From: an uncultured Bacteroidota bacterium
GTDB taxonomy: Bacteria > Bacteroidota > Ignavibacteria > UBA10030 > UBA6906
DNA length: 64,000 nucleotides
NCBI GenBank assembly: GCA_963734955.1
Contig: CAVTJO010000011.1
Location: 457,698 to 521,697, forward strand
Reading direction: 5' to 3'
In this document: positions 45,101 through 54,985 of the stretch, piece after piece
Position numbering within the stretch: the stretch's first letter is position 1
How the letters are laid out: each line of letters opens with the position of its first letter
Position numbers and translations under genes: made by a program
The notes under the pieces: generated by a model
The model's database searches: none
What the model was told of the DNA's origin: nothing
What the model saw: the letters and a program-made list of their open reading frames with translations, nothing else

Positions 45101-46395
45101 CTACTTTGTCAGGATGCCCATTGATTTCTGCAACTGCACGAACGCGCTACTATAATCATACAGCGCCTGGATTCTTGTGATGCGGGCATTGGACAGGGAA
45201 AGCTGGGCGTCCGATGCATCGAGAGCCGTACCAACACCGGCCGCGTATTGCCGCTCCGCAAGAAGGAGATTCTGTTCGGCCTGCTCGACAAGTTTCGAGG
45301 TGGCATCCAGCCGCTCACCCGCCTCACGCAGATTAAAGTACGCCTGCTCGACTTCGAGCACGATTGACTCGTGTAATACCTGCAGATTTGCTTCGGCGGC
45401 ATCCGCTGCGGCCTGCGCCTGCTCCACCTGCCCCGCAATGGCAAATCCCTGGAATAATGGAAGTGACAACGTCACCCCGGCACTCCACCGCCTGAACAAC
45501 GGAGTGTAGTCAAAGTTGCTCCAGGTCAGGCTCCCCGTTGCCGAGAGCGTCGGCAGATGCTGATCCCACGCGGCGGTGACTAGCGATTTGCCTGCCTCAA
45601 CACGTGCCTGGGCGGCGAGCAACTCCGGCCTCGTTTCAAATGTCACGGACTTTACACTGTCAAGATCCATTGAGAACGGAGCCACCTGGAGCGTATCGGT
45701 GAGGAGATAGGCATTCTGTGGATGCAGTCCGATGGCATTCTCCAGCTGGAGATTTGCCAGGCGAAGCTGGTTCGCGCCCTTATGAGGTTCACGTTTGCGT
45801 TGGCAAGATCAACTTCCGCCTTCGTCACATCAAACAATGGGCGACGACCAACACTGTAGAATGCTTTCGCCTGTGTCAGATGTTTCGTTGCCTGACCGAC
45901 TGCCTCTTCATTCACCCGAACAACCTGATCGGACTGTACGACCCCGAAATATGCAACCTCCGCATTCGCTATCACTGTTGCCCGCGATGCCGTGTAATCA
46001 AGGGACGACGCATCAAGTGTACTGCTGCCCGCTGAAACCCTGTTGATGGTTCGTCCGAAATCAAAAAGCGTCTGGCTTGCCTGAAGGCCTGTTGTATAGC
46101 TGTCGTACGTTTGATTGCGAGGAGGAATGGTCGGGTTGAACACAAATGCGCCATCGTTACGCGTAACCGACCCCGACACACTCAGCGATGGAAAGTACGC
46201 AGACTTCGCCTGAGTGAGGGAGCCTGAAGCAGATCGAATGTTCGCTTCCGCCGCCCGCAGGGCCGGATGATGTTCAACTGCAAGGTCGATTGCCTGCTGC
46301 AGCGTCAAACTCTCTCCGGACGATTGTGCGAGTGCAATACCTTGAGAGATCCAGGCAATTGTGACGAGCAGGACATCAGCGCGGGTTCCCCCCAT
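45101..46395 (-). CDS. TolC-family outer membrane efflux protein (OMF), split by an apparent frameshift near 45775
   Basis: ORF 45652..46395 has a signal peptide and the first TolC repeat. ORF 45101..45685, in a different frame, is the second repeat. Joining them as ...VNLIRAR|ANQLRLANLQLENAIGLHPQNAYLLTDTLQVAPFSMDLD restores a contiguous OMF. A short indel in a gcgcg tract is implied. Confidence 0.65.
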
Positions 46396-49529: not shown

Positions 49530-50582
49530 TTATCCTGGCTGAATGGAGATCGGGCTGCCGTCTTTGATAAATTGCTGCCCGGTCGTGATGACGTTTTCAC
49601 CGCCGGCAAGCCCGTTGAGGATTTCGGTCCGGGAATTCTGCTCTGTGCCAAGATTCACAGGAATACGTTTCGCGGTATCATTCATCGCGACGAAGACATA
49701 CGCCCCCTTGTCATCGCTGAGAATGGCTGCCGTGGGTACGGTGATTGCATCGGGATGTTCATTAACAACGAGCGTCACCCGCGCGAACATCCCAGGCTTG
49801 AGAAGTCGATCGCGGTTCGGAACGTCAACCTCAACTGCCATCGTCCGAGTGGAGAGATCAACTGCTTCCGCAAAACGCTTCACCGTCCCGACAAACTCCC
49901 TTCCGGGATATGCATCCACGGTTACCTGCGCTTGTTTCCCTTCCTTGATAAGCGGTATGTCCTTCTCAAGCACATTGACGATAACCTTCATGGCGTTGAG
50001 ATCCATCAACATGAAGAGGGTGAGATTGTTCGCCGTAACCAATGAGCCGGGGTCAAGAGAGCGTCTCGTGATGAATCCGGAGAACGGTGCGGTAATCCGG
50101 GCATATCCCAGGCGCGTTGCTGCGAGCTCATACGCGGCTTTCGCAACTTTCGCTGCTGCATCGGCGTTGTCGATATCCTGTTTTGCAACTAGATTCTGTT
50201 CCGATAGTTCCCTGGTTCTCCGGTAGTTTACCGCAGCGTTTTCATACGTTGCAGCTGCCTGCTGGTATTGCTGGAAAAGTAGCGTGGTATCGATCAACGC
50301 GAGGGTCTGTCCCGCCTCCACCTGGGAACCAATATCAACGAACGCCCGCTCGAGATTGCCATCGACTTTGGAATAGATACTCGCCTGTCGCACAGCAACC
50401 ATATCGCCGGTAAACTGGAGTTCATACTTCACAGCCTCACGGCCGGGCTTTTGCACCTTCACCAGCGGCAATGACTGCCTGCGGCTGTCCGCCGCAGCGT
50501 TGCCCGCGAGAAATCTGTAGGCGATGTACGCGACAAAAGCGCACGCGACTGCCAACAGGATGATTCTGGTTTTCTTCGTCAT
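49530..50582 (-). CDS. RND efflux periplasmic adaptor (membrane fusion protein, HlyD/AcrA family)
   Basis: About 350 aa with an N-terminal TM (MTKKTRIILLAVACAFVAYIAY) and coiled-coil plus beta-barrel domains. It is immediately upstream of the RND pump. Confidence 0.8.
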   Translation of the reverse strand: MTKKTRIILLAVACAFVAYIAYRFLAGNAAADSRRQSLPLVKVQKPGREAVKYELQFTGDMVAVRQASIYSKVDGNLERAFVDIGSQVEAGQTLALIDTTLLFQQYQQAAATYENAAVNYRRTRELSEQNLVAKQDIDNADAAAKVAKAAYELAATRLGYARITAPFSGFITRRSLDPGSLVTANNLTLFMLMDLNAMKVIVNVLEKDIPLIKEGKQAQVTVDAYPGREFVGTVKRFAEAVDLSTRTMAVEVDVPNRDRLLKPGMFARVTLVVNEHPDAITVPTAAILSDDKGAYVFVAMNDTAKRIPVNLGTEQNSRTEILNGLAGGENVITTGQQFIKDGSPISIQPG

Positions 50583-50834
50583 GTACGGTACTTGATTATA
50601 ATGCGGTGAGAAGTGGCCCAACGCCAATCAGGCACTCAGAATGGACACGTCACGGCATTGAAGGGTTTAACGTCATTCGTCCGAAATAGCGAATTGAGGC
50701 CCTGGCCGCCGGCAAGAATATACGATAGTTCATTCTTGATTGCCATATGAACACTCTGTACAACACGGAATTCACCTGCAACATTCCCGACGTTTGCGAA
50801 TAGGCAACCTTGCAATCCTCATCATTTTCCCTTA

Positions 50835-52019
50835 TTGTATGGGTGCATGCTCACAGTGTCGGGCATCGCTGACGTTTTTCCCTCACTGCATCAACCTACG
50901 GAGCCCCTGATGGCAAAGACTGCCCCCACAGCAAGGCCAAAGGCCGGCAAGGCATCTGCACTCGACCCCCTCATCGAAAAGCTCAACTCGTTCTCAGCAG
51001 ATAACTATTGGGATCTCGGAAAGTTTCTCGTTGAAAAGCTCATCCCCATTGCACTCAAGGAGGGTATATTCGGAGAGCACATACTGAAACGGATGTCAGA
51101 TGTTCCGGGATTCAAGTTTCCGTACTCCATGCTCAGGCAGTGCCAGCAATTCTACACCTACTATCCTGATGTGCAAAAACGCCCCCTTGCGGAGATTTTC
51201 TACTTTGAGCTTGCAACAAAGGTGGATGAAACACGTGAGCGGGACCGTTACGAGAAAATGGCAATCACGTACAAATGGACGATCTCTGATCTTCAGAAAA
51301 AGATTCGCGAAGATGAGCTGGCACGGCGGGAAGACGAGAAGACAAAGTATGGATTCGACTTGAAGGAGCGCAATGTTTGGTCGTTCGATGCCCCGGATCC
51401 GCGCTTTGGAAAATCAGGTTACAAGGGAAGGCTCCCGGGGCAGATTCTTGCCAATGCGCTCTTCTATTACACCCAGCCCGGAGGGACTGTCCTCGATCCG
51501 ATGGCGGGCAGCGGGACAACCGGAGACGTGATCGCGTCAGTACCACACTTTATCAGCCACACGTGCAAGATGTACGACGCTGAGCCATCCGATTCGCGAA
51601 TCGAGCGTGCGAATATACTGCTTACCGGCATTCCGGAGCAGTCGAGCTCATTTGATTACGTGTTCCTTGATCCGCCCGCTGACTTCTATCCACGAGGCGA
51701 TGATTCCAACTTCTCTCCCGCCGCGGCCAAGGCTGAAACGCTGATGAAGTTCAAGACCATCGCGCGGGAAAGCATTCGCACTCTGAAGCCCGGCGGAAGA
51801 ACCTCCGTTATTGTTGAAGCCTCCACGGGGTCCTTCGGTGTGATTGACTTTCCCTTCGAGGTGTCACAGATCTTCCGCGAGTTGGGCTTGACACAAATCG
51901 GCAAGGTTTATCTCCCGAGACGCGGAGAAACTGCCAAGCTTCGCGCTCATGTGGACGGCCTTAAGCCAATGGCCTCCGATTGCAGGGAACTGTTGACCTT
52001 CGAGAAACCACGCGTTTGA
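50835..52019 (+). CDS. SAM-dependent amino-methyltransferase-like protein (N6/N4 DNA MTase-like motif X-I then variant motif IV 'DPPA') with uncharacterised ~185-aa N-terminal domain
   Basis: 394 aa. The stretch [34 protein letters not shown] matches motif X and motif I of PF01555-type MTases. About 45 aa later, [13 protein letters not shown] is a DPPY-like motif IV with Ala in place of the aromatic residue. The likely true start is MAKTAP, near 50910. Confidence 0.55.
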
Positions 52020-52039
52020 CAATCGGGAGGGCACGCACC

Positions 52040-52330
52040 ATGATCGAGCGAAGGAGGCTTTCCGATCTGGAAGTTGCTGATGCGCTGAAGACGTTGAATG
52101 GGTGGTCAGTCATCAGCGGAAAACTGCACAAAGAGTTCAAGTTCCAGGACTTCGCGCAGGCGTTTGGCTTCATGTCCAGCGTGGCGTTACTTGCCGAAAA
52201 GATGAACCACCACCCCGACTGGTCCAATGTGTACAGTAGAGTCGTCATCGACCTTACGACCCACGACCTCAACGGCATCAGTACCTTCGACGTTGAGTTC
52301 GCTTCAAGCGTGAACAAGCTTCTGAAATAG
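52040..52330 (+). CDS. phhB: Pterin-4a-carbinolamine dehydratase (PCD/DCoH)
   Basis: [24 protein letters not shown]...[32 protein letters not shown] is the canonical PCD sequence. The ORF-track start at 51980 is an upstream extension. Confidence 0.8.
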
Positions 52331-52453
52331 CCTCTCTCCCGATCTTCCTCCTACCATCATCACTTCATGGTGGAGAGCTGAGTCCCATCTTGCCGGTTTG
52401 ACAGGGTTCGACCCGGTTGAAGGCGGCTATGATTTCGGTCTTTGAACAACCGC

Positions 52454-53041
52454 TCAGTCTTTTGACAGCGATTCGACAAGGTTGTTGAACTCTGCTTCGC
52501 TGGCCGCGATGGTCTTTGCAGGACCCGTATACTTGAAGAACACCTCCCCTTCAGGAGCATTCACAATGGCCCCGAGAAGACGATAGTTGTCCTTCTTTCC
52601 CTGTGACTCCATCATCGGACCTGATGGTGCGAGGTACGTCCCGCCAATATGTACAAGCACCACGTTCAATCCGTTCACCTGTTTCGACGACCGATCTACG
52701 GCTCCGGGGTTTTCGAACTGATTCACCCAGCGGTCTATGTTCTGGTCCACGTCACCACCCTGACCGCTGCCGAAGTAGAATATCGCACACTCTCCACCTT
52801 CCGCGTCTCCTTCTGCTGCAGGAACCGTGTATGTAGCGATGCGCATTTGACGGGGTGGCTGATCCTCCCAGCGGTCGGGCCGCTTCCAATGAATCCCTGC
52901 AATCGAATTCACATCGTGAGCCGATACAACACCCGGACCCTGCAGAGGCACCTGGTTCGCCGGCGCGGGTGGTTTCTTGTTGCACGCTGATGTTGCCACG
53001 AGTCCCACGACAATGAGCGTCCGCATCAGACCGGTTTTCAT
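52454..53041 (-). CDS. Lipoprotein, hypothetical
   Basis: 195 aa with a lipoprotein signal and lipobox (LIVVGLVATSAC). Confidence 0.5.
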   Translation of the reverse strand: MKTGLMRTLIVVGLVATSACNKKPPAPANQVPLQGPGVVSAHDVNSIAGIHWKRPDRWEDQPPRQMRIATYTVPAAEGDAEGGECAIFYFGSGQGGDVDQNIDRWVNQFENPGAVDRSSKQVNGLNVVLVHIGGTYLAPSGPMMESQGKKDNYRLLGAIVNAPEGEVFFKYTGPAKTIAASEAEFNNLVESLSKD

Positions 53042-53080: not shown

Positions 53081-54034
53081 TTAGAATTGTAACGAAATGC
53101 TCAGGCCATCGCCACGGGCCATTGCGATCGGGGCGAGACTGAGTTTCACCTCGCCTGGATCCCCGACCTTGCCCGTGTCAAACGGATGCGATACGATTCG
53201 GCCAAATGTGTATCCCAGTGCCATCCCCAATGGCAAATCACTGTACCAATGCCAGCCCTTGTTTACCAATCCGATCCCCACGAGTCCCGTGAGTGCATAT
53301 CCCACCGGTTTCATCCACACGAGCTCGGGGTAATTCTCAGAGAGGACAGTCAAAGTCGCCGTCGTCGTGGCAATATGGCCTGAAGGGAAAGCATAGTACT
53401 TCGACTGATGCCTGTCATACGTCTTGAGACTTGGAAAGGGCCTCCACGTGCCTCGCCTGGAGCTGGCAACGCCCGGACTCTCGCGACCGGCAAGATGCTT
53501 GAACGTCTGGACCACAAGACCCGTTACAACCAGGGCTTCCAACGTCTGACTTGCCACCCGGAGCGCACGATGATCCGAAGCAACAAAACCGTAGAGACCA
53601 AACAATCCTGTTACGGCCAGATCCGACCTTCCATCCCCAAGCAAAACAAAGAAGTCTGAGCAGGACGAAACGGTCCTCGATCTTTTGCTGAACCCGCTGG
53701 AGACCTTGTACATGTTGGCGTCGGCAACCACGAGACCAACTGTCAGCCCCGATAGACCTGCGAGTACAGGAATGTTCTTGGGATCGATTGAAATTGAAGC
53801 AAAGTGTTCAAGATCATTCGGCACATTCCCCACAAAGTCGTACCAACGGGGAAGAGATTGATGCTCTCTCAGATTTGACAGCGTGAGTGAATCACTCGAA
53901 CCAGGTGGGACCAGGAAACTCACATCAAACGTCTTCAACCCTCTTTCCTGCGCGATCAGGATGCCGTCTTGAACCCAAACCAAGAAGACCATTACGGCAA
54001 ATGCTTTTCCTGAGAACATGTTCACTCTGGACAT
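53081..54034 (-). CDS. PAP2-like (phosphatidic acid phosphatase type 2 superfamily) secreted/membrane protein, paralog 1
   Basis: 317 aa with a signal peptide. PAP2-like motifs are FKHLAGRESP, FPSGH and HWYSD. It ends in ...SISLQF, a C-terminal Phe. Confidence 0.5.
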   Translation of the reverse strand: MSRVNMFSGKAFAVMVFLVWVQDGILIAQERGLKTFDVSFLVPPGSSDSLTLSNLREHQSLPRWYDFVGNVPNDLEHFASISIDPKNIPVLAGLSGLTVGLVVADANMYKVSSGFSKRSRTVSSCSDFFVLLGDGRSDLAVTGLFGLYGFVASDHRALRVASQTLEALVVTGLVVQTFKHLAGRESPGVASSRRGTWRPFPSLKTYDRHQSKYYAFPSGHIATTTATLTVLSENYPELVWMKPVGYALTGLVGIGLVNKGWHWYSDLPLGMALGYTFGRIVSHPFDTGKVGDPGEVKLSLAPIAMARGDGLSISLQF

Positions 54035-54040
54035 ACGATT

Positions 54041-54985
54041 TCAAAACTCCATGGACAGAGAGAGCCCGTTACCGATGCGGTTAACCATGGGAGAAAAAGT
54101 CAGTTTTGGCCCATGACCAACGTCGCTCACACCAACACCTTCTCCTTGAGGGTGTGCAACGAGAACACCAAATGAATAGCCGAGCGCAATCCCCAGCGGA
54201 TAATCACTATACCAGTGAATGCCGGTGTTGCCCATTGCCACACCAAGAAGCCCAACGAGTGAGTACCCAACCGGTCGAATCCAGCCAACTTCTTCATAGT
54301 TCTCGGCAATCACCGTCACAGTTGCCAGCGCGGTGGCAACGTGTCCTGACGGGTACGCATCATAATGCGGGACATGTTTGTGGTACTCGATTTGGTTCGG
54401 GAAGAGACGCCACTTGCCGCCCGGCGCAGTGGAAACAAACGGACTTTCCCTTCCGGTCAAATGCTTCAGAACTTGAACAACAGTCCCGCAGGCAAGGATC
54501 ACTTCCACGGTTTGGCTCGCAGTGCGAAGTGCCCTGCTGTCTCTGGCAGCGAACCCATAAACACCAAATGCAGCAGCCAGCCCAAACTGTGTCTTTCCAT
54601 CGCCGAACATCTCACAAATATCACTCGCCTTTTCGATGGTCCGTGAGCTCCTATACCACTTGTCAGATGCCGTCCATGTCGCATCATCCAGAGAAACGAG
54701 GGCAACCGTCGAAATTGTGAGTCCGAGAAACAACGGAATATTTCTCGCTGTAAACGCCCCTTCACTCCAATGTACCCAATCACGAGGGATGTTGACAAAC
54801 ATATCATACCATTGAGGGACCAACCGGGCGTCGCTGGTAGATGTAGAGGAATCGGCGGGAGGGGCTGATGTTGCCAAAGTTACTGGCGTAACAAGAGTCG
54901 AACCTTCACGCGCCACCAAAAGTTGGGGAACGTGAAGAAGGATTATCAGAAAGGAAACCGAGAACAGGTGATGATTACGAAGCAC
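54041..54985 (-). CDS. PAP2-like protein, tandem paralog 2
   Basis: 314 aa, collinear with 53081..54034. Motifs are LKHLTGRESP, YPSGH and HWYSD, and it ends ...SLSMEF. Confidence 0.5.
   Translation of the reverse strand: MLRNHHLFSVSFLIILLHVPQLLVAREGSTLVTPVTLATSAPPADSSTSTSDARLVPQWYDMFVNIPRDWVHWSEGAFTARNIPLFLGLTISTVALVSLDDATWTASDKWYRSSRTIEKASDICEMFGDGKTQFGLAAAFGVYGFAARDSRALRTASQTVEVILACGTVVQVLKHLTGRESPFVSTAPGGKWRLFPNQIEYHKHVPHYDAYPSGHVATALATVTVIAENYEEVGWIRPVGYSLVGLLGVAMGNTGIHWYSDYPLGIALGYSFGVLVAHPQGEGVGVSDVGHGPKLTFSPMVNRIGNGLSLSMEF

Follow-up and report, generated by a model that had tools for sequence, protein, structure and literature searches.

The 64,000-nucleotide stretch of contig CAVTJO010000011.1 analysed here (hereafter the window), from an uncultured Bacteroidota bacterium of the class Ignavibacteria, carries on its forward strand a gene (50910..52019, 369 codons plus a stop) for a two-domain protein of the methyltransferase family. 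The protein is an un-permuted counterpart of the beta-class DNA methyltransferases of family PF01555, with an N-terminal domain of the ParB/KorB type. Its motifs X, I and II are intact, as is the D-P-P of motif IV. In the clade of orphan genes to which it belongs, two or three tyrosines that do not vary among the clade's relatives have been lost (Y257, Y265 and Y158), and conserved phenylalanines have arisen two to three residues further on (F259 and F268). By sequence, the nearest full-length relatives are encoded by the methylase gene of a HerA-linked operon in defence islands. Our confidence in the architecture, the homology and the orphan clade, taken by themselves, is high. Our preferred explanation goes further: the protein would be a solitary, vertically inherited homologue of DNA amino-methyltransferases, with a remodelled base-binding loop and a fixed DNA target, that is still catalytically active on DNA. 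As a whole, we believe this explanation about as much as we doubt it.

Domain architecture and motif order

The methyltransferase domain (amino acids 148-369; 51351..52016, +) is predicted to adopt a class I Rossmann fold, with its motifs in the un-permuted order X-I-II-III-IV-...-VIII. A conserved segment of 31 residues (148-178; 51351..51443, +) leads into motif X and aligns with TNVWRMSRLN...GHPTQKP of M.RsrI; among 54 family members, W157, D163, P164, R165, F166, G167, G173, R174, G177 and Q178 do not vary. The S-adenosylmethionine (SAM)-binding loop of motif I reads DPMAGSGTT in translation (51495..51521, +), and across the orphan and HerA-linked clades D196, G200 and T203 are invariant and P197, A199 and G202 nearly so. 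In motif II, CKMYD (51564..51578, +), strand 2 (residues 218-223 in the structural model) ends with D223, an acidic residue that is invariant. Motif IV begins 50 amino acids past the end of motif I, which gives the order X-I-II-III-IV. Over the whole domain, the residues invariant in both clades include D196, G200, T203, D223, D254, P256, E303, K332 and Y334.

The assignment to PF01555 (N6_N4_Mtase) rests first on a direct profile match of 32.4 bits against a gathering score of 26.7 (E 1e-7). This match covers only profile positions 117-200 of 221, a stretch that comprises the NVW...P.Q segment, motif X and motif I. A motif X/motif I block like that of PF01555 had been claimed in the initial annotation of this DNA, and the block is indeed present in the translation. 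That annotation had also called a methyltransferase fold, and had named a missing SAM-binding fold as the finding that would undo the call. The AlphaFold2 model, built on a 54-sequence alignment, bears out the call: with a predicted local distance difference test score (pLDDT) of 85, it shows helices at 19-144 and a Rossmann methyltransferase core at 176-365. Its structural neighbours in Foldseek are all class I SAM methyltransferases, among which M.TaqI ranks midway.

Is the unusual motif order real? An exhaustive phmmer search of 1.84 billion representative sequences returned 783 relatives (321 with E < 1e-10), most of which align to amino acids ~145-345 only, at about 35% identity, and vary in their N-termini. 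All 40 of the looser relatives sampled for their methyltransferase domain match PF01555, the best with E 2e-24. We built a family profile from 40 looser relatives and aligned it with the beta-class enzyme TTHA0409 (2zie). Profile positions 275-377, from DPPYW onward, fall on chain residues 33-137, and positions 229-277, which hold motif I, fall on residues 232-280 of the same chain, so that the order is swapped. The family profile aligns with M.RsrI likewise in two swapped pieces, and the window protein gives the same split alignment with 8urk. The two-piece alignments to 2zie and M.RsrI therefore indicate homology to PF01555 in the un-permuted order X-I-II-III-IV-VIII; judged by these alignments, the permutation relative to the beta-class enzymes is genuine and no chance resemblance.

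The family profile was required for this comparison: with the single protein as query, a sequence search of the PDB gave no E better than 0.1. In NCBIfam the matches are sub-threshold only (PRK11524, 18.7 bits with a cut-off of 292; CcrM, 17.5 bits with a cut-off of 830), and no curated family therefore applies. The PHROGs collection yields short motif-I matches to phage methylases only, a plasmid collection has no match to the window protein, and in PADLOC the methylase part gives only short methylase matches.

Beta-class PF01555 enzymes (M.RsrI, M.PvuII, TTHA0409 and CcrM) share with the window protein the NVW...(H/Y)P..(K/R)P segment, motif X, motif I (VLDPxAGSGTT), the D-P-P motif of strand 4, the helix and strands that follow it, and the SAM-dependent Rossmann fold. 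They differ in linear order, which is IV-VIII, recognition domain, X-I-III in the beta class and X-I-II-III followed by IV-VIII in the window protein. Their DNA-binding module lies between the two halves, whereas here it is N-terminal, and their catalytic motif is (D/S)PP(Y/F/W), a pattern outside which DPPA falls. Beta-class enzymes are obligate homodimers whose recognition domain acts in trans; the models built here are of the monomer. The initial annotation had spoken of a gamma-like order. The order is indeed permuted with respect to the beta class, but it is all that agrees with gamma-class enzymes such as M.TaqI and EcoKI HsdM: by descent the domain groups with the PF01555/beta-class enzymes, and the DNA-binding module is N-terminal. 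Gamma-class enzymes carry their DNA-binding, recognition module at the C-terminus, and their motif is NPPY/F. No Pfam match to the gamma families PF02384 and PF07669 was found for the window protein.

The N-terminal domain (amino acids 14-146; 50949..51347, +) is all-helical and resembles DUF1016_N, with a predicted DNA-binding fold of the ParB/KorB/SopB helix-turn-helix (HTH) type. PF17761 (DUF1016_N) matches with E 2e-7 and 31.3-31.5 bits against a gathering score of 32.8. The same match is precomputed on many homologues, and the PADLOC models PDC-S02 (DUF1016/YhcG family) match with E 1e-9. Modelled separately, residues 14-146 reach a pLDDT of 90.8. The N-terminal ~185 residues, thought at first to resemble nothing recognizable, have a recognizable predicted fold over a shorter extent; amino acids 148-178 belong to the methyltransferase module by their homology to the NVW...HPTQKP segment of M.RsrI. 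The YhcG/DUF1016 nucleases of PDC-S02 have a probably homologous helical N-domain, joined there to a C-terminal PD-(D/E)XK nuclease and here to a methyltransferase.

The N-termini of the looser relatives are ParB_N in 11 of 40 and otherwise many HTH types, DUF1016_N or DUF3102. In a phage collection the sole match, a weak one, is a gene annotated as ParB. These DNA-binding N-termini and the ParB-annotated phage gene point to DNA as the class of substrate. A gene of phage MW202554.1 (L090:573-1853), annotated only as 'chromosome partitioning protein parB', has an un-permuted methyltransferase domain at its C-terminus, 32% identical to amino acids 157-334 of the window protein.

Un-permuted relatives of the MboIIA/MunI group, some of them associated with ParB, were described by Iyer, Zhang and Aravind (PMC4738411). 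The un-permuted topology is therefore not new in itself, and the novelty first claimed for this protein stands only in part: the motif order was confirmed, but un-permuted PF01555 relatives, ParB-associated ones included, had been published. Their Group-1 N6A-methyltransferases (DpnA-type, EcoRII-linked and from phage ParB-terminase loci) share with the window protein the un-permuted domain, the affinity to PF01555 and the association of ParB type. We judged this likeness by the published family definition (PMC4738411), which brings in clades 4-6; no numbered clade is assigned. Group-1 genes lie in DpnII or EcoRII restriction-modification loci or in phage ParB-terminase loci, unlike the window gene, a vertically inherited chromosomal orphan. 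Group-1 enzymes have DPPY/W, whereas the window clade has DPPx[DE][FY] and a DUF1016_N-type, ParB-HTH-like bundle that lacks the ParB N-terminal domain. The kind of enzyme is thus known; what is new is an orphan PF01555-type methyltransferase, un-permuted, whose head is ParB-HTH-like and whose loop reads DPPx[DE][FY].

Aromatic residues in and around motif IV

Motif IV of the window protein reads DPPADF (amino acids 254-259; 51669..51686, +). D-P-P is unchanged, alanine stands in place of the aromatic fourth residue, and an acidic and aromatic pair specific to the clade follows. Full-length homologues of other clades were gathered for comparison by a second word-index search, which started from a relative of 43% identity. 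At the fourth position, all 40 full-length relatives below 53% identity have tyrosine, as do 120 of the 126 relatives that share the methyltransferase domain only (W in 2, F in 1). Tyrosine also stands there in at least 90% of 40 broader relatives. In the clade at 53% identity or above, the window protein included (n = 255), tyrosine occurs once and the position is filled by A (93), S (75), H (41), T (22), E (7), G (5) and others. That DPPA departs from a near-invariant DPPY, as had been proposed from the sequence of this one protein, is thus upheld by the 120 loose and the 40 HerA-linked full-length relatives. DPPA itself is, on this comparison, one state of a hypervariable position that marks the whole orphan clade.

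The residues that follow are not hypervariable. The fourth residue is succeeded by [DE][FY] in 253 of the 255 orphan-clade sequences. We computed column entropies for 242 distinct orphan-clade and 40 sister-clade sequences. D254 and P256 do not vary in either clade, and P255 is kept in 240 of the 242 orphans. At position 257 the orphan clade has an entropy of 2.37 bits (A 88, S 72, H 41, others) and the sister clade 0 bits. Only D or E stands at position 258, and all but two orphans (240/242) have F or Y at position 259.

Two further tyrosines are affected. Y265 and Y158 are invariant in the sister clade (40/40), and Y265 is at least 90% conserved across the wider family; both are lost in the orphan clade. 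Conversely, F259 (0.35 bits) and F268 (0.86 bits) are conserved in the orphan clade only, the latter where relatives carry Y265. We favour the view that the loop of motif IV has been remodelled rather than has decayed, because hypervariable position 257 is followed so regularly by [DE][FY] and because F268 is kept.

The HerA-linked sister clade and the orphan locus

Where do full-length relatives with an intact DPPY reside? All of those with enough flanking DNA lie directly behind a gene for a HerA/DUF87 ATPase, and wherever the contig extends further upstream, a gene for a 345-amino-acid protein precedes the HerA gene. The order of the operon is thus 345-amino-acid protein, HerA/DUF87 ATPase and DUF1016_N::methyltransferase (DPPY). 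It covers loci L069-L073, L076-L080 and L082-L085 (for example L069:3130-7119 and L072:2078-5929, neither in the window; also L077, L078, L079 and L082-L085), is rare and was met in metagenomes only. AIPR, MmeI-like, Mrr, Cas1, HEPN/MNT and ParE (toxin-antitoxin) genes adjoin these operons. The 345-amino-acid family has 35 members in a database of 5.8 billion proteins, whereas the distinct orphan methylases number at least 241. The protein has no match in Pfam, PADLOC or a PDB profile search, and none of its 35 homologues has a domain. By eye alone it shows NurA-like 'aiDg' and 'KDGP' motifs. In PADLOC the HerA protein of the operon weakly resembles mad8 of MADS, and the methylase weakly resembles mad2. 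The three-gene operon looks like an undescribed restriction-like system.

The HerA-linked methylases are homologous to the window protein over their full length, at 36-43% identity, and have the same two-domain architecture. They keep DPPY, Y265 and Y158 (40/40) and have a variable N-domain; the window protein has none of these features. Neither HerA nor the 345-amino-acid protein was found by tblastn in the 64-kb window or in 68 orphan-clade loci. One copy of the operon (L071:3372-5997) is decaying: its HerA gene is split into open reading frames of 302 and 242 amino acids, its 345-amino-acid gene contains stops, and an insertion sequence (rve transposase), Mrr and Cas1 lie alongside. The methylase of this copy (DPPY) remains intact, and the locus may be a snapshot of a methylase turning orphan.

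In neighbour-joining bootstraps of the methyltransferase domain, the orphan clade is monophyletic in 100/100 replicates and joins the HerA-linked clade in 94/100, while monophyly of the HerA-linked sequences is recovered in 58/100. The orphan clade is therefore sister to the defence-linked clade or nested in it. Against eight orthologues, the proportion of nonsynonymous differences (pN) is 0.06-0.16 and that of synonymous differences (pS) 0.72-0.85, which is saturated; the few comparisons with estimable dS give a dN/dS of ~0.04-0.05. The methylase is more conserved than its neighbours (in L005, 89% identity against 61% and 72%). A scan of species-representative genomes found 66 loci in 66 metagenome-assembled genomes labelled Ignavibacteria, Bacteroidota or Chlorobi, one per genome. 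By these comparisons the gene is under strong purifying selection, single-copy and vertically inherited.

Comparison of orthologues shows stronger conservation in the N-domain than in the methyltransferase domain. The entropy of the N-domain is 0.83 bits in the orphan clade against 1.55 in the HerA-linked clade, whereas that of the methyltransferase domain is equal in the two (1.08 and 1.07 bits). Such a pattern would be expected if defence-linked enzymes diversify their DNA recognition and the orphan's target is fixed.

The surroundings of the gene are those of a housekeeping locus. Its neighbours encode MoaA, glucokinase, 6-phosphogluconolactonase, OpcA, a divergent resistance-nodulation-division (RND) efflux operon and a pterin dehydratase and, further, a lipoprotein-like hypothetical protein, two PAP2 proteins, MsrB, 2-keto-3-deoxy-6-phosphogluconate (KDPG) aldolase, 6-phosphogluconate dehydrogenase and PfkB kinases. 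No restriction or defence gene was found within ~12 kb of the methylase or in the 68 orthologous loci (±4-6 kb), and no nuclease, terminase or ParB gene in the window context of the methylase. The initial annotation was accurate in describing a solitary gene in housekeeping company, followed by the dehydratase.

The longest open frame (50835..52019, +; 394 codons) begins with TTG, and the gene had accordingly been drawn from 50835. We place the start at ATG 50910, because homologues are ~369 amino acids long (365-375) and have MAKT at the N-terminus (120 best database matches). Two signals agree with this correction. A GGAG ribosome-binding site (50900..50903, +) lies 6 nucleotides 5' of the ATG; among the 25 orthologues with at least 70% identity, the window counted in, 17 have GGAG 4-12 nucleotides before the inferred ATG, as do about half of those less similar. 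Further upstream is a promoter-like element, TTGCAA (-35), a 17-nucleotide spacer and TATTGT (-10), at 50810..50838 (+), kept in orthologues. The TTG at 50835-50837 falls within its conserved -10 hexamer and is therefore part of the -10 box, leaving 50910-52019 as the gene. Of 64 orthologous loci, 21 have the pattern TTGC[AT]-N16-19-TA[TC]N[GC]T at 52-117 nucleotides 5' of the ATG (0.15 expected in shuffles), which suggests a promoter role for the element. A generic sigma-70 scan did not call it, because its match to 8 of 12 consensus positions lies under the scan threshold.

An Rfam search of 50400-52500 returned no match, hence no leader of the riboswitch type. The 65-90-nucleotide leaders of the closer orthologues each hold a G+C-rich hairpin 15-45 nucleotides past the -10 box (50854-50871, +, in the window, with equivalents in L005-L009, L012, L013, L021, L043 and L059). 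The stems vary in sequence among loci, so that structure is apparently kept without sequence. A T-run follows the window hairpin, which was flagged as terminator-like. Such hairpins could be 5' stabilizing stem-loops or attenuators.

The pterin-4a-carbinolamine dehydratase gene (52040..52330, +; PF01329, E 1e-30) begins 20 nucleotides past the methylase stop. Its start at 52040, not 51980, follows from 96-amino-acid homologues and leaves no overlap with the methylase. In the sub-clade of the window alone, the two genes are probably co-transcribed. Their adjacency is found in nearly all loci at 70% identity or above and below that only in L030 (66%); sub-clades at 56-65% have upstream either a short-chain dehydrogenase/reductase (SDR), an acyl-CoA dehydrogenase and GlmS, or carbamate kinase and aspartate carbamoyltransferase. 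With adjacency so confined and other neighbours elsewhere, the dehydratase is ruled out as a functional partner; the adjacency is synteny by descent.

Beyond the dehydratase, a 195-amino-acid hypothetical lipoprotein-like gene that has no Pfam match (52454-53041, -) shares synteny with the methylase-dehydratase pair in most of the loci that reach 70% identity, its own identity being 45-72%. It is followed by tandem paralogous genes for PAP2-family membrane phosphatases of 317 and 314 amino acids (53081-54985, -). In the RND operon, the gene for the TolC-like outer-membrane efflux protein (45101-46395, -) is broken into two overlapping open reading frames (247 and 194 amino acids), each with one OEP repeat; its syntenic counterpart on a 474-kb contig is one gene of 428 amino acids. 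The split is a frameshift, from a pseudogene or an assembly error.

Activity, substrate and significance

How might the orphan protein work? The protein may attach through its N-domain to a single DNA sequence or structure that is conserved. Its methyltransferase domain would bind SAM and, most likely, still methylate an exocyclic amino group (N6 of adenine or N4 of cytosine). F259, together with Tyr334 of motif VIII and possibly F268, could provide the stacking for which the lost tyrosine once served. By analogy with Dam and CcrM, the protein would have an epigenetic or housekeeping function and not protect from a cognate nuclease. Those orphan regulatory enzymes are likewise solitary, lineage-wide, vertically inherited, conserved and free of a cognate nuclease (PMC7544214). 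The analogy concerns the way of working only: Dam and CcrM belong to another class and topology and keep DPPY.

Several observations weigh against an active DNA methyltransferase. The Y107G mutant of HP0593, a PF01555 enzyme, is inactive (PMC3036652), and the Y108A/G mutants of M.TaqI, as cited there, have lowered activity. The loss of both near-invariant tyrosines, 257 and 265, could equally mean that the base-binding pocket is gone. The likeness of the N-domain to ParB is at the level of fold only, with 9-13% identity.

In the strongest alternative, to which the inactive HP0593 mutant lends support, the protein would be a pseudo-methyltransferase that binds SAM and a specific DNA site and transfers no methyl group, a SAM-responsive regulator or site-occluding protein domesticated from a defence methylase. 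Position 257 holds 14 different residues and so is unconstrained, the family-wide tyrosine 265 is lost along with Y158, and within the protein conservation is highest in the DNA-binding domain. There are precedents in METTL14, an inactive module kept for binding (PMC4738411), and in the inactive Dam domain of DndH, proposed to be a dominant-negative site blocker (PMC10853773). Inactive paralogues usually degrade their SAM-binding and catalytic motifs, however; here ~240 sequences, reaching down to 55% identity, show no variation in motif I, motif II or D-P-P, and the new conserved aromatics beside the lost ones look compensatory. We consider this alternative rather unlikely, though it deserves to be kept in view.

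A related and more sweeping proposal is that a defence methylase was domesticated by a lineage of the Ignavibacteria, became an indispensable chromosomal protein and gave up canonical base-stacking catalysis, ending either as a SAM-sensing, sequence-specific DNA-binding pseudo-methyltransferase or with a new kind of amino-methyltransferase active site made from relocated aromatics (DPPx[DE]F...F), possibly for a new target. We offer it tentatively and consider it rather unlikely.

Re-targeting to RNA (N2-methylguanosine (m2G) or N6-methyladenosine (m6A) in tRNA or rRNA, for example) or to protein appears improbable to us, though it would account for the housekeeping-like conservation of the gene as well as for the altered substrate pocket. 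N6A-methyltransferases have shifted to RNA repeatedly (PMC4738411), the gene is strictly vertical, single-copy and highly conserved, and one source labels a homologue RsmD. Weak Pfam matches to m2G RNA families also speak for it, though they fall below their cut-offs (UPF0020, 10.9 bits against 22.3; Cons_hypoth95 of RsmD, 13.7 against 24). Sequence profiles, however, favour PF01555 over UPF0020. TrmN, Trm14 and Trm11 of UPF0020 have a THUMP domain; the window protein has no THUMP, PUA or other RNA-binding domain, and its N-domain resembles those of the DNA-binding proteins ParB and KorB. Its relatives are linked to DNA, the nearest of them lie in defence operons, and the family is confined to one lineage rather than universal.

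It is very improbable that the methylase still guards the genome from an unlinked or unrecognized restriction partner: the sister clade is clearly defence-linked and the search covered only 64 kb of the window genome and ±4-6 kb of the orthologous loci, but HerA and its partner are absent from all of these, the partner family is far outnumbered by hundreds of orphan methylases, and a frozen DNA-binding domain in a stable housekeeping context is the opposite of typical restriction-modification behaviour.

For routine annotation the gains are a corrected start codon and a domain assignment. Whether or not the orphan protein is active, its sister relationship to the HerA-linked clade offers a concrete case of a defence-system methylase becoming a housekeeping orphan, and the HerA-linked operon is flagged as a candidate new restriction-like system. 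If inactive, the protein would be a bacterial case of a methyltransferase domesticated as a SAM-dependent DNA-binding protein. If the preferred explanation is right and the protein is active, the 'invariant' aromatic residue of (D/N/S)PP(Y/F/W) can relocate within the loop, the motif rules for calling DNA methyltransferases in genomes would need to be widened, and a lineage-wide epigenetic mark would be indicated in the poorly studied Ignavibacteria.

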